Assembly: GCA_963758525.1 (NCBI GenBank) | Contig: CAVWVQ010000003.1 | Coordinates: 448,001 to 512,000 of the forward strand | Direction of reading: 5' to 3' | Length of the DNA: 64,000 nucleotides | Origin: an uncultured Phycisphaerales bacterium | GTDB taxonomy: Bacteria > Planctomycetota > Phycisphaerae > Tepidisphaerales > Tepidisphaeraceae | In this document: in pieces, positions 17,344 through 26,579 of the stretch | Numbering within the stretch: the stretch's first letter is position 1 | Layout of the letters: each line of letters opens with the position of its first letter | Translations under genes and position numbers: made by a program | Notes under the pieces: generated by a model | The model's input: the letters and a program-made list of their open reading frames with translations, nothing else | Told to the model about the DNA's origin: nothing | Databases searched by the model: none

Positions 17344-19577
17344 TCACGGCACTGTCGTCGGATCGCTCTTGGAAAATCCGTGCAGGCGGGCCATGTTCAT
17401 CAGCGTCTGCTGAGTTCCGATGTCACCTGGCTCGGGCTTGCGCTGCTCGTAGGATCCGTCGCTGCGCATCTCCCACGCCTGACGGCGGTCGCGCAGCATG
17501 ATGTTCAGAATCTCCCACAATCTCTCGCGCAGGTGACGCTTCTCGATGGGGGCGGCGGCCTCCACGCGGGCCAGCAGATTGCGGTACATCCAGTCGGCCG
17601 AGCCGATGATGAACTCTCCATCCAACTCGTCGGCCGCGCCGTTGCGGAAGTAAAAGATCCGAGAGTGCTCGAGGAATCGGCCGATAATTGAAATCACCGA
17701 AATATTTTCACTCAGCCCGTTGACGCCAGGCCGCAGGACGCAGAATCCGCGGACGATCAAGTCGATCTTCACGCCGGCCTGCGAAGCGTGGTAGAGCACC
17801 GGCAAACCTTGCGGTCTTCCAGGGCGTTCATCTTCGCGACGATCCGCGCGGGTTTGCCGGCTTTCGCATTGGCCGCCTCGCGATCGATCAGCTCCAGAAA
17901 CCTTGCCTGCATGTTGACCGGCGCGACAAGCAGCTTGCGATAGTCGCGCTTGAGCGATCTGCCCGTGAGGTAATGAAACAATTCGATCACATCGTGCGTG
18001 ATGCCCGGATCGCAGGTGAACAAACCGAGATCGGTGTAGAGCTTGGCGGTGCCGGAGTGATAGTTGCCGGTGCCGATGTGCACGTAGGAGCGGATCCCGT
18101 CCAAATCCTGACGCACCACGAGCGTGGTCTTCGTGTGTGTCTTGAGCCCGACGATGCCATAAACAACATGCACCCCCGCCTTTTCCAGGGCGCTGGCCAG
18201 GTGGATGTTGCGCTCCTCGTCAAAGCGGGCCTTGAGCTCGACGAGGCAGACCACCTGCTTGCCCGCCTCGGCAGCGCCGATGAGCGTCTGAATGAACGAG
18301 CTTCTGTCGCCCGTTCGATAGAGCGTCATCTTGATCGCCAGCACGTTGGGATCGGCGGCGGCGGCGCGGACGAATCGCTCGACGCTGCCCGTGAAGCTCT
18401 CATACGGAAGATGCACCAGCACGTCGCCATTGTGGATGACGTTGAAGATATCCGCGTCCTCATCGGCGAAAGGCGCCGGGACCATCGCGCTCCAAGGCTC
18501 AAACCGCAGGCGCGGAATGTTCAGGTCGGCGATGCTTCGCAGATCGTCGTAATCCAGCTCGCCGGACATCTCGTACAAATCCTCGGGCACCAATTGCAGC
18601 TCGCGCATCAGAAATTCCAGCACCCATTGGTTGGTGTTGGGCCCGTATTCCAGCCGAACCATCCGCGCGAAGCGACGCTGGCGGATCTCCTCTTCCATCA
18701 GCTCCAGCAGATCTTCCGCCTCTTCCTCGTCACGCTCGAGATCGGCATTGCGCGTGACCCGAAACGGCATCACGTCCACCACCGCCATGTCCGGAAACAG
18801 GTCCTGCAGATTTTGGCGGATCAGCGTGTTCAAACTGACGAACCGCATCGGCCCGCTGCCGGCGACATTGTGCAGGCCGACCCATTTCGGCAGCACTTCC
18901 GGCACTTTCACGCGCGCGAACAGGTTCTCGTGTTTGTCGGGATGGTGCAGGACGACCGCCAATGAAGTTGAAAGGTTGGAGATGAACGGAAATGGAATGC
19001 CCGGATCGACCGCCAATGGCGTGAGCACCGGAAAAACCGTTGCGCGGAAATAGCGTGTGGCGCTTTCGCGATCGGTCTCGCTCAGGTCGGACCATTCGAG
19101 CAGATGAATCCCATTTTCCGCCAACGCCGGCCGCAGGACATTCTTGTAGCACGCGGCCTGCTGCGCGAGCATCGGCACCACCGCCGCGCGAATCGACGCC
19201 AGTGTGTGGGCCGGGGTCATCCCGTCCAGCGACTGCGCCACGACGCCCGCGGCAATCTGCCGCTTGAGACCGCCGACGCGCTTCATGAAATATTCGTCGA
19301 GATTCGAGGTGAAGATCCCCAGAAACCGCACGCGCTCCAGCAAGGGCGTGCGATCGTCCAACGCCTCGTGCAGCACCCGGCGATTGAATTCCAGCCAGGT
19401 CAGATCTCGGCTGAGAAACTCGGAGGGCCCTGCCGCCGCTGCACCTGCTCCAGTGACAGACACGCTTGCGGCGACCGCGCCGTTCCCGCTGGCGACGATC
19501 TCGCTGAGCGAAGCGGTGGAGCGCTCCACCACGTCCGCTTCCTGCCGGCCCCCGAAGTTGCGTCTCGATTTAGCCAT
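17344..19577 (-). CDS. ppk1: Polyphosphate kinase 1; frameshift near 17800
   Basis: RDLTWLEFNRRVL, ELKARFDEE, KTHTK, GTGNY, GRFLEHSRI, GSADWM. Confidence 0.95.
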
Positions 19578-21179: not shown

Positions 21180-21770
21180 GTGCCATTGGATAGTTCATGC
21201 CACGGGGAACGGCAACGCGCGGCGGGCGAGGTTCATCGAATCTGAATCTTGGTAGAGTCACTGCCCCGTTTTTCGTAATGGTAATCTTCCGCCAGATCAC
21301 CACCGATGTTTTCCATGGCCTTGGCCCGGATGACCTGCCGCTGGTCCTGGTCCAGATAGAACCGGCTCGGGATCAAATGAGAGAAAGTCTCGACAACGAA
21401 GAGCCCGGCCCGAGGAACCCAAGCAATGCCGCGCGACTTTGAACCACGGGGCTGCTACGGGGCAAACAGCCGCTTTACAATCCGGGACAACGCGAATGAC
21501 CGCCGGGCGGTCAACCCTTGTTTGCCGCTCGGAATCAGCGGTTCGCTTGACACAACTTTACAGAATTTTACGTATTCGAGTGGTGCGTAAATACCGAAAA
21601 CTCGCTTGCGTTACGACAACAGATGAGCGTTGCCGCTGATTCGGTGCTCGAATCCATCCGACAGTTGCCGCGATTGAGCAGATGAAAGACCGGACCGCCG
21701 ACCGAGGACCGCAGCCTTCGAGCCATGGGAACGCAGCGAAAACCGTAAAACTTGGAGCTTCAATTGAGAC

Positions 21771-22205: not shown

Positions 22206-22943
22206 CTATGGTTGAGACCCTTTGCTGCGTCCCTTGGGCGCGCGGTCGAGCCAGGGATACTTGCCCCAGATGGCGTCTACTCCTCGCGCATAGGTGGAAT
22301 ATGTGTGGTAGACGACGCCGTCCTCAAGCGCGAAAGCGCTCATGCCCTCCCGCTCGCGCGAATAAGTACCCACATCCGTTCCGGTTGTGGCTGCGTTATT
22401 GGCAGGAGCGGAGCGCGTCGCTTCGGACCTCGCAATATTCATCACGGGGTCGTCGCGGCGGAAGTTGTAGTTGGCGCCATCGCGCACTTGCTCAGCCGTG
22501 AAGGAGACGTGGAAATCGAAATTAAAGTCGCTGCCGAACGACGACGCCCAGGGAAAGGTCCAACTTTTTTCGCGCTTGTAGTCTTGCAGCTTTGCCAAAG
22601 GGCCCCGTGACACGGCCCAGAGCGTGACGTCATGATTTGCCAGGTGGGCGGTAATGCCGTTGAAGCCGTCCGCGATGGATGAGCACGACGGGCAACCCTT
22701 CGAGTATTCCGGTCCGAACATGAAGTGGTAGACGAGCAGTTGAGAGCGCCCTCTGAAGAGATCAGCCAGCGATGCTTTTCCTTCCTCCGTGTCGAATCTG
22801 TATTCCTTCTCTATCGGAACCCACGGCAACTCTTGCCGCCGCTGCGCTACTTCGTCTCCACGCCGCGTCAGCTCCTTCTCCGCCTTGAGCAAATCAAGCC
22901 GAGCTGACAGCCACTCTTCGCGCGTTCCAGTCTTATGATTCGG
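22206..22943 (-). pseudogene. DUF899 thioredoxin-like protein lacking its native start codon
   Basis: TREEWL, LFRGRSQLLVYHFMFG, CPSCS, YHTYS. The frame begins CCG-AAT-CAT directly against the repeat, with no ATG. Confidence 0.75.
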
Positions 22944-23037
22944 GGAAGTGAAACGGGGACGGAAGTGAAACGGGGACGCAGCTAGTTAATTAGCGGGAAG
23001 TGAAACGGGGACGCAGCTAGTTAATTAGCGGTAGCGA

Positions 23038-23719
23038 TCACATTTTCGCGCCTTTCTGAACCTTCTCCGGGCGGCCTTCGCGGCGGACGGTATGGCCCAG
23101 ACCCAGCTCATGGGCCATCTTGGCCGTCCAACCGGCGTTCCCCAGCGGCCGGCCACGCCGCTCGCTGGTTGCGACCGCCTCCCGCTCGGCGTCGGTCGGG
23201 GGCCGGTTTACCAGTTCAATCCAGTCCCGTCCACGGCTCGACCGGCCAGGGAGACAGAATCGATTTCTGCTGCTTGGTCCCGTGTTGCCGGACCCACAGG
23301 CTCGACCATCGCCACTGCTCCGCCCGCTCCACCAGATTGGCCGCCAGGGCGTTGCGTTCCACATATCGGCAGACGCTCAGCAGATGCCCGTCCCGTGCCA
23401 CCGGAAAGCTCTTGAACCGGCCCTGGTAGAGATGCCCGTAGCCGACGGTGTGATGGGACACACGCCAGCGCATCGCATGGGTATGGGTCAGCCAGCGGAA
23501 GACGCCGTCACTTCCCCGTCCCGCTCCGGCCAGACGACAAAATGCCAATGGTTGGACATCAGGCAATAGGAGAGGATACGGATCGGATGCCGTTCATGAG
23601 CTTCCTGCACGATCCGCTCGAACGCCTCGAAGTCGCTCTCCCGGCGGAGCATCACCATCCGTCCCACCGCGCGATTGAGCGACGAGGCCGCTGGGAGCGA
23701 CGCGAGGAGGACGGGGCAT
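23038..23719 (-). pseudogene. HUH tyrosine (Y1, RAYT/IS200-like) transposase with three frame breaks
   Basis: MPRPPR, LNRAVGR, YCLMSNHWH (HUH), GHLYQGRFKS, RYVERN (catalytic Tyr), WRWSS. Confidence 0.88.
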
Positions 23720-23726
23720 GCAAACG

Positions 23727-23754
23727 AAGGTAACTTTAAAACGCCGCTCGTCAA
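23727..23754 (-). promoter_or_regulatory. Sigma70-like promoter of the transposase, probably leaderless
   Basis: TTGACG-N16-TACCTT, 7 nt before ATG. Confidence 0.55.
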
Positions 23755-23996
23755 CAACTAGTTGCGTCCCCGTTTCACTTCCCTAGTTGCGTCCCCGTTT
23801 CACTTCCTCCAGTCCCGCTCGTCAACAACTAGTTGCGTCCCCGTTTCACTTCCTCCCTAGTTGCGTCCCCGTTTCACTTCCTCCTCGGTCAGAGAGATGA
23901 CGCGTTCCCGAACCAGCAGTTGCTCCCCGGGAGCAAGCTTGTCGAAATCGTTCAATAATCTGGCGGCTACGAGTGGGCAAGCGATTCGGAAGGCTC

Positions 23997-24956: not shown

Positions 24957-25123
24957 TTCGACCTTGGAGGCGCGGAGGTGTGTGAATGGCGCAAATCTGG
25001 CGGGCGTCTAAAACAGTCGAGTTCGCGGAAAGCGGCGAACAAATGATCTCGTAATCGACCAAGTCAATCGGCATCTGACTCTCCTTCCCGCGTAACGATC
25101 CTCAATGTGTCCCGCGGGTTTAT

Positions 25124-26353
25124 TCACTGCCGCGCCTGTCCCGCCGACGTCGGCGCCGGCCCCGAAACAACACAACGGAACCCGGTGTGCGACAGGCTCG
25201 TATCGGGACTGGTCCCCCGACGGGCGCTGACGCGGTAGCTGGCGCAGTACTGATGCGCTGCAGAGAAAGGACCCGCCGCGCGTGACTCGTTTGGGGGTAT
25301 ATGGTTCGCCCGGATCGAAGCTCTTGTCTGGGCCCTGGGGATCGATCACCGCCTTTGCGCCGGACGCTTTTTCCCCCGTGCGGTAGGCCGAGACGTCATA
25401 CCAATCCGCGCACCACTGCCAAACGTTGCCGGCCATGTCGTATAACCCGAAGCCGTTTGGCGGGAAGGATTTTACGGGGGAGGGGCCGGGATCTCCGCCG
25501 GTTTTGTCGCTCCGATACGGGAAGATTCCGTGCCAGATGTTGCATCGCGGGCGCGGGGTCATCGGATCATCATCGCCCCAGAAATATCGCTTGCCTTCCA
25601 GGCCGCCGCGCGCGGCGAATTCCCATTGGGCTTCGGTCGGGAGCCTGCGCCGGCCCATCTCGCGTAGTGGCTCGCGTCATCCCAACTAACTTGCACGACG
25701 GGGTAATCATCCTTGGCTTGGATTGAGCTTCCCGGGCCTTGTGGATGACGCCAATCCGCGCCAGGCGTCCAGCGCCACCATGCCGATACGTCATCCAGCG
25801 GAACGGGATGATCCGGCGCGACGAACACGAGTGATGCCGCCACCAACTGATCGTCAGGCGGCTTTGCCGTTCCCGGTGGAAGCTGCTTTTTCATCTCCTG
25901 CCAGTCCGGGGAACGCTCGGCCGAGGTGATGTAGCCGGTCGCTTCCACAAACCTGCGGAATTGGGCGTTGGTCACGTCGGTGCGATCCATCCAGAATCCG
26001 CTGACGCGAACCCGATGCGCCGGCCTTTCCTGCGGCTCGGCATCTTCGGCATCGCTGCCCATGGTGAACTCGCCGCCGGGAATCCAGACCCGATCTGCCT
26101 GCATTCGATTTGGCGATGGTGCATCGGATACGGAGCTGACGCTGGGAAGCGTCGACGGTGGAAATCGGCTCGGCAGCCTGCAGCACAGCGGAGTGGATGA
26201 AACTGCCGCGTTGGTGCCGGCGCTGGGCGACGCTGCTCTGGAGCCGGCGCGATTGTGGCCCCCTACTGCAAACAGCGCGGCCCCTAATCCTGCGATCAGG
26301 GTTACGCCGACGACGGCGGCGTGACGTGCTTTCAACGGAGGAATGTGCCGCAT
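25124..26353 (-). CDS. Formylglycine-generating enzyme (SUMF1/FGE family); two frameshifts
   Basis: IPGGEFTMG, PVVQVSW, RLPTEAQWE, GLYDMAGNVW, RGGSFLC..YC.SYR, GFRC. Confidence 0.92.
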
Positions 26354-26579
26354 TGAAGTCTCCGGAGAATTCGGGGAAGCTCTGGGCATCCGCGGGCCGC
26401 GACGACGCTGGCGCGGAGGCGACGGTGCTCTCCGGACGCCACTCAGAAGGTTCCGTGCAATTCCTCATCAAAACCGTACGGTTGCTCGAAACGGGCGCGT
26501 TCAGCCGAGAAGTTTATCCGCGCGAGTCGACGAGCGAATTGGGGATCGCTTCGGCGACCGGTCCGGGCGATCCCGAGCA

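Follow-up and report, generated by a model that had tools for sequence, protein, structure and literature searches.

An inactivated TIRYT element from a Tepidisphaeraceae bacterium with end-anchored terminal arrays that may be scars of nicking outside a non-palindromic repeat

TIRYT genes and TIRtron elements were named by Di Nocera, De Gregorio and Rocco (2013; PMC3733652) together with a GGGGWSAS motif. According to the accessible part of that text, the motif is common to many, not all, terminal inverted repeats (TIRs), and the repeats were noted as dimers or clusters. In the available text of Quentin et al. (2018; PMC6006769), 20 of 26 TIRYT examples fall in TnpA-Y1 subclass 2.1, the second-largest Y1 group (14.9% of species). 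Subclass 2.1 equals RAYT group 1, which is described, in the part of the preprint consulted, as the most IS-like RAYT group, with 6.3% duplicates and 1.2% on plasmids (Bertels et al., 2017; 10.1101/119735). The searchable papers gave no substrate, cut site or mechanism for this subclass. HUH enzymes leave a 5'-phosphotyrosine and a free 3'-OH which is able to prime synthesis or to attack the link (PMC8266576, in part). A model of BIME amplification uses this chemistry: a nick, priming from the 3'-OH and rejoining to the tyrosine-held end add tandem units (PMC3333891, Fig. 7B, as excerpted).

The window, i.e. the whole stretch of 64,000 nucleotides analysed here from an uncultured Phycisphaerales bacterium (contig CAVWVQ010000003.1), carries a Y1/HUH transposase pseudogene of about 229 codons on the reverse strand (23038..23719). 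The NHWH and YVERNA motifs are intact. Compared with the intact relatives L005 and L089, to which the DNA is 81-83% identical, the gene has an 8-nt deletion at about 23680, a 1-nt deletion at about 23500 and a 1-nt insertion at about 23236. The first-pass annotation of a Y1/HUH transposase enclosed by inverted termini was right as to class and enclosure, and the gene copy itself is broken by three indels. The 8-nt loss is probably no read error, and it removes conserved residues. A 224-nt contig of read run X1 lacks the additional base at 23235 and otherwise has a single mismatch.

Intact copies in the source genome (G000) match PF01797 with E values of 6e-11 and 3e-14, as does one fragment in the window, and Y1_Tnp was the only Pfam family found in them. 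Against the NCBIfam family REP_Tyr_transpos (NF047646) they scored 48.7-64.1, below the cut-off of 80. The protein has 231 residues. NHWH was present in 125 of 147 intact open reading frames, YVERNA in 70 and YVERNP in 51; over 113 sequences H60 and H62 were invariant and Y122 was conserved in at least 90%. A structure model built on 113 sequences (pLDDT 93) matched E. coli TnpA-REP 4ER8 best (Z 15.8, rmsd 2.9, 159 aligned), a match also obtained by HMM (E 7e-8) and Foldseek (E 1.6e-6). The IS608/ISDra2 enzymes came next, with Z 9.1 to 2VHG. The C-terminal tail matched no Pfam family, helix-turn-helix families included, and the same was true for longer 2.1.2-type relatives. In the full model this tail contains three helices; modelled alone it reached pLDDT 58. 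Alignments of the tail to NHVH/YIELNP proteins from Rhodospirillum, Iodobacter and Skermanella plasmids covered 95-100% of the query (26-28%). In the three of 13 plasmid matches that were opened (L199-L201; Rhodospirillum, Iodobacter, Skermanella) the TIRYT gene adjoins a type II toxin-antitoxin pair. A 25-row tree placed the clade with motif-defined 2.1 proteins (99/99), in a group which includes one short outlier and has no internal resolution. Judged from its sequence, the window element is an inactivated member of TIRYT/TIRtron, a named class, and it probably belongs to TnpA-Y1 subclass 2.1. The earlier proposal of a poorly described class was correct in that little is described; the class had already been named and appears in two papers (PMC3733652, PMC6006769). 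A match to a characterised element was half found: the class is catalogued, without biochemical characterisation in the searchable papers.

The true left TIR comprises 27 nt (22996..23022, forward strand). Its GGGGAC starts 11 nt inside, and the boundary at -11 derives from 89 left/right comparisons. The true right TIR, also 27 nt, lies on the reverse strand (23756..23782) and differs from the left at one position, as had been seen before. The termini had been given as 25 bp; presence and place were right, and pairing sets the length at 27 nt. Repeat comparison reproduced the left copies starting at 22944, 22961 and 22996, and the inverted right 25-mers at 23758, 23783, 23829 and 23857 were recovered likewise; of these, the innermost on each side (22996 and 23758) is the true end itself and no copy. 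The window motif GGGGACGC agrees with GGGGWSAS at 7 of 8 positions, and relatives have exact GGGGACAG or GGGGTCAG.

Outside the left end, repeat comparison found a copy of its first 35 nt (22961..22995) and, outermost, a copy of its first 17 nt (22944..22960), both on the forward strand; on the inward-reading strand the flank is followed by the 17-nt copy, the 35-nt copy and then the true end. Beyond the right end, on the reverse strand, lie a 25-nt copy with a 3-nt tip copy at 23808-23810 (together 23783..23810), then four unstranded nucleotides without a match to end or inner sequence (23811..23814), a 39-nt copy with a 3-nt tip copy (23815..23856) and, outermost, a 25-nt copy with 3 nt which are either tip copy or flank (23857..23884). 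The 39-nt unit consists of 25 nt of end and 14 nt of inner sequence, in agreement with the first-pass annotation. Read inward, this side runs flank, 3, 25, 3, 39, 4 unmatched, 3, 25 nt, true end. The additional GGA which precedes three of the four right copies equals the first three bases of the end. All array copies have a common outer start and a variable inner length, as initially noted, and each array retains the diagnostic base of its own end at the mismatch position. The termini had been called non-palindromic, and indeed five of six stretches folded no better than shuffles (z 0.15 to -1.03); one 39-nt stretch had z -2.0. Hairpin ends, considered for this element, were unsupported by folding against shuffles and were discarded. 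At the right repeat a TTGACG (23754-23749) was inspected as part of a sigma-70 promoter, and the promoter scan gave no site.

The left flank is a DUF899 gene on the reverse strand without a start codon (22206..22943; PF05988, E 6e-86), and the end of the element abuts its codon 2. The orthologue in congener G002 starts M-P-S-H-K-T-G; in the window P-N-H-K-T-G follows right after the repeat. The right flank (23885..23971, reverse strand) is the front part of a small gene, cut at the element end, and is not the DUF899 upstream region. It is 84% identical to G000 C3:4057408-4057494, where the frame runs about 35 codons further. The element has likely cost its host the DUF899 start codon and part of the small gene. 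A 4-nt TCGG direct repeat beside both ends was rejected as a target duplication because among 81 relatives no such duplication rose above a permuted null and because the flanks come from different genes. A staggered duplication of 6-7 nt within -11 to -5 was dismissed as well (direct matches 1.37 of 7 against 1.43 in the null, 89 elements). For 12 of 14 two-ended elements in the source genome a flank had a homologue reaching the junction. In none of the 12 did the homologue, in some cases a paralogue or repeat (50-90%), continue into the other flank. The flanks of two elements in single-contig genomes were adjacent in congeners in neither case. A search for the empty site of the window element matched the left flank in one of 40 other genomes (69% identity), with no adjoining match to the right flank.

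Elsewhere in the window, a dispersed repeat of about 300-370 nt (21386-21756) recurs in the genome as 16 further blastn pieces (76-95%), and on its right side it contains a decayed TIRYT gene start, 1.2 kb from the element. The polyphosphate kinase gene (about 17500-19577, reverse strand; named from sequence reading) changes its reading frame near codon 595, probably through an assembly indel. Two overlapping reading frames at 25008-26389 (reverse strand) look like one gene split by a frameshift, which we take to belong to the formylglycine-generating-enzyme family.

The source genome (6.47 Mb, 6 contigs) contains 23 Y1_Tnp matches and at least 34 tblastn loci in several families, each with its own repeat. 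The 25-mer of the window element has 16 matches at up to 4 mismatches. A sister family comprises 7 near-full-length copies of 86-100% DNA identity on two contigs, which counts for mobility. Arrays were found at 15 ends among 89 pattern matches, many of which are chance matches of the loosest pattern, and the units ranged from 3-4 nt to about 110 nt. A gene-less miniature of 139 nt (C3:819724-819862, L008) has both ends of the window family and a left array; on its right there is an 8-nt flank repeat, and its right flank copies C3:814494-815204. At C1:198746-209534 the right flank of a TIRYT element (205196-205990) copies DNA 7 kb leftward and is followed by more duplicated sequence; this resembles a tandem duplication that has decayed, one of its breaks lying at the element end. 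A second kind of short repeat (7-9 nt) begins inside GGGG(A/T)CA at C3:1698240, 2872505, 5031745 and 307260, where several remnants start as well, and might mark a second break point. Islands of TIRYT copies occur on contig C3 at 221-228k, 303-307k, 2841-2845k, 3467-3475k, 4292-4300k and 4613-4615k, and further at C1:312-320k and C2:450-456k. The copies there are nested in one another and abut other mobile or repeat-rich genes, presumably IS66-like, ISAzo13-like, RHS-like and integrase-like.

We then asked how far this geometry extends among relatives, represented by the best 80 loci out of 237 from genomes and the best 80 out of 387 from metagenomes. All of them are kin and cannot be counted as independent. 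The closest among those listed are from Planctomycetota genomes, with Tepidisphaeraceae bins first. By profile search the motif was recovered at 232 of 320 ends (1 false match in 927 shuffles), 217 of them distinct; of the 143 relatives with at least 80 nt on each side, 88 had it at both ends and 41 at one. Relative to GGGGAC, left/right identity was 0.76-0.99 at -4 to +14, about 0.55 at -11 to -5, and at background from -12 outward. An upstream partial copy of the end was present at 79 of 217 distinct ends compared with 14 of 175 control windows; the terminal arrays are not confined to the window copy. They also adjoin longer 2.1.2-type genes. In several sets (L135, L138, L145, L148-L151; L042/L043; L034/L036) element copies have one flank in common and differ in the other; this fits independent ends, and short-read mis-joins are possible.

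In 43 of the 79 array ends the nearest copy was a clean tandem duplication; in the other 36 it was not clean. Of the clean duplications 39 start at -9 to -13 and run inward, and the other four are three-copy arrays. In 34 of these 39 the start window includes -11 or -12; their inner breaks lie anywhere between -2 and +24. At the inner break no last base was preferred (G 19, A 8, C 6, T 6; null 16.5, 10.4, 8.1, 4.0). Where the origin of a copy could be assigned, it was the same end in 30 of 34 cases. Opposite-end copies were seen three times (L126U, two in L120D); a fourth listed, L068U, was a mis-set reference. Duplications on the flank side abutting the end were at chance level (1 of 209 against 2.2 expected). 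At 11 of 213 ends a stretch of flank recurs 40-537 nt further inward; an example of 430 nt is in the single-contig genome G070. Long outward duplications occurred at 2 of 213 ends, and both were further array copies; at 4 ends the stretch lay on the opposite strand. Copies that are nearly identical but sit in different flanks part at -10 to -12 in most families. The G070/G152 families diverge at -3 to -8, and their outer 7 nt differ between copies of 94-98% identity. Further exceptions are the long duplication L097D, which joins at about -2 with 9 nt of common sequence, and two loci in G000: at C3:819862 8 nt are repeated on the flank side, and at C3:303692 a duplication of 83 nt takes in 71 nt of flank.

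We lean, by a modest degree, to the view that the arrays are scars of a nick in the inward strand about 11 nt outside GGGGAC, followed by polymerase extension and rejoining of the tyrosine-held end. The conserved core from -4 to +14 would be the putative binding site from which the distance to the nick is measured. The enzyme would nick the inward-reading strand at -11, so that the 5' end of the element is presumably linked to tyrosine and the 3'-OH of the flank is freed. A host polymerase could then extend this 3'-OH by n bases into the element with displacement. Rejoining of the tyrosine-held end to the new strand would duplicate the first n bases of the end, and homology is unneeded. If this end were instead joined to a 3'-OH further away, long duplications directed inward and deletions next to the element might result; each end would then act alone, like a rolling-circle origin without a terminator. 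The fixed start, the inward long duplications, the absence of target duplications and the non-adjacent flanks were counted for this scheme; ordinary IS-adjacent deletion or recombination between copies also leaves non-adjacent flanks. The strand is assigned from scar polarity. Counted against it were the duplications that include flank, the L097D junction, the outer 7 nt in G070/G152 and the 36 of 79 copies that were not clean; so were the opposite-end copies, because local fill-in cannot make them. The movement of a whole two-ended element is also beyond its account. The idea in the first-pass annotation that repeated cleavage and rejoining at one fixed site builds the arrays is supported as to origin; the cutting position holds only to within about ±1 nt, from -10 to -12 according to family.

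Three other explanations were weighed. It is very improbable that the arrays at the window locus arose as artefacts when a long-read metagenome bin was assembled. The assembly does contain single-base frameshifts, such as the one in ppk, the X1 contig is without the additional base at 23235, and the two read runs (shares 0.08 and 0.06), available as contigs only, cover neither array. However, the same geometry is present at about 14 other ends in the source genome, and each array keeps the diagnostic base of its own end. Arrays also occur in short-read contigs with k141 or NODE names (L021, L022, L023, L025, L027, L053, L083), in single-contig genomes (L173, L183, L185, L186, L202, L208), in long-read bins and in the RefSeq plasmid of Skermanella rosea (L201). 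Because of this recurrence across short-read, long-read and single-contig assemblies and a plasmid, the terminal arrays are, as far as assembled sequences can tell, biological and family-wide. Slippage may create tandem copies as well, either after a nick in the outward strand whose 3' end slips back and re-primes, or without a nick when a repeat-bound protein stalls forks. It would likewise give a fixed outer and a variable inner limit; at least 1 nt of microhomology exists at 25 of 39 clean junctions, and many units end in the G run. Yet junctions with 0/1/2/3/4/5 nt numbered 14/10/7/5/2/1 against 16.9/10.4/4.8/3.8/1.7/0.6 in a null built from the same ends; the distribution is that of the null, and 14 of the 39 junctions have no microhomology at all. 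An outward nick predicts flank-side fill-in duplications or an obligatory microhomology; the former were at chance, and the latter was not seen. The IS66-type ends of the same genome have no copies (0 of 9). Slippage in either form thus appears quite unlikely. Duplication polarity, microhomology at the null and chance-level flank duplications together made an inward-strand nick the preferred reading.

The remaining alternative retains the same nick on the same strand and ascribes the duplication to strand transfer between two copies of the end instead of local fill-in. Candidate partners are sister chromatids at the fork, the other end of the element or another copy. It would accommodate the opposite-end copies in L126U and L120D, outer copies which are often unlike the inner ones in the outer 7 nt, and the right flanks at G000 C1:205990 and C3:819862, which copy DNA 5-7 kb away on the inward side. 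It also fits the link between IS608-type transposition and lagging-strand DNA that is reported in the accessible text of PMC6006769. On the other hand, a second cut by the enzyme, in the acceptor, ought to show as a base preference where the copy breaks off inside, and none was seen; units of 3-14 nt are common, and same-end copies prevail (30 of 34). We regard strand transfer as unlikely, less so than slippage.

If the scheme of nicking, extension and rejoining is carried further, TIRYT may constitute a third mode of Y1 transposition, in which a double-stranded non-palindromic repeat is bound, the nick is placed 11 nt outside and each end is a terminator-less, rolling-circle-like origin. This extension is tentative, and we give it slightly less credence than its negation. 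If true, the elements would spread by successive one-ended events with clean insertions being rare, they would be local engines of duplication and deletion in islands of clustered elements, and the arrays would record within the genome where and on which strand the nick falls and how far fill-in proceeds. The scars predict the strand and the phosphodiester that is cut, with a hairpin unneeded, and intact homologues exist, such as G000 C3:1093985-1094677 and L089. The scars also speak for a mobile, rearranging element, and against a domesticated single-copy gene, at least in this Planctomycetota clade.

How does the locus compare with described systems? Like a TIRtron it has a RAYT-like Y1 gene, inverted repeats at short distance which are not REPs, and a GGGGWSAS-type motif; the TIRtron text, in the part available (PMC3733652), contains neither end-anchored partial reiterations nor an analysis of boundary, target site or mechanism. 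In open-licence PMC and bioRxiv text, with figures and one supplement outside this scope, no published account was found of the arrays, their polarity, the boundary at -11 or the non-adjacency of the flanks. With subclass 2.1, as far as its description was accessible, the element shares a length of about 230 residues (median there 238), a conserved serine, a C-terminal extension and the absence of REPs. The consensus of the subclass is NHVH or NH[YF]H and Y---NP, and the NHWH and YVERNA/YVERNP of our clade are close to it but outside. TIRYT examples of subclass 2.1 are listed there with an HTH-like tail (Bac_DnaA_C, HTH_23, HTH_28), whereas Pfam detected none here. In contrast to RAYT group 1/subclass 2.1 as portrayed in these texts, the window clade is multi-copy within genomes. 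Unlike RAYTs/REPtrons of groups 2 and 3 it lacks palindromic, GTAG-footed REPs abundant in the genome, yet E. coli TnpA-REP is the closest solved fold. REPs form hairpins with a GTAG foot and are cleaved at C|T in many places, and the BIME scheme, as given in the excerpt of PMC3333891, comprises the same nicking, priming and rejoining and needs a second site-specific cut in addition. TIRYT arrays, by comparison, start at a fixed position of a non-palindromic substrate and stop without base preference. IS200/IS605 elements (IS608, ISDra2) have the Y1 HUH fold and the lack of a target duplication in common with the window element. They are characterised, in the portions of PMC6006769 and PMC3333891 at hand, by subterminal hairpins, two different ends on one strand, an enzyme of about 152 residues with Y---Q, and precise excision and insertion; the hairpins, the non-identical ends and the short Y---Q enzyme are absent from the window element. 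The functional analogue of the proposed scheme is the one-ended transposition of IS91. The IS91 transposase is a larger Y2 enzyme. Common to both, according to the accessible text of PMC13181058, are an HUH enzyme, one fixed and one variable end, no target duplication and the mobilisation of adjacent DNA, whereas in IS91 the oriIS and terIS ends are distinct, inverted repeats are lacking and a tetranucleotide serves as target. In the window element, by contrast, both ends are one and the same repeat and both carry arrays; both look like origins.
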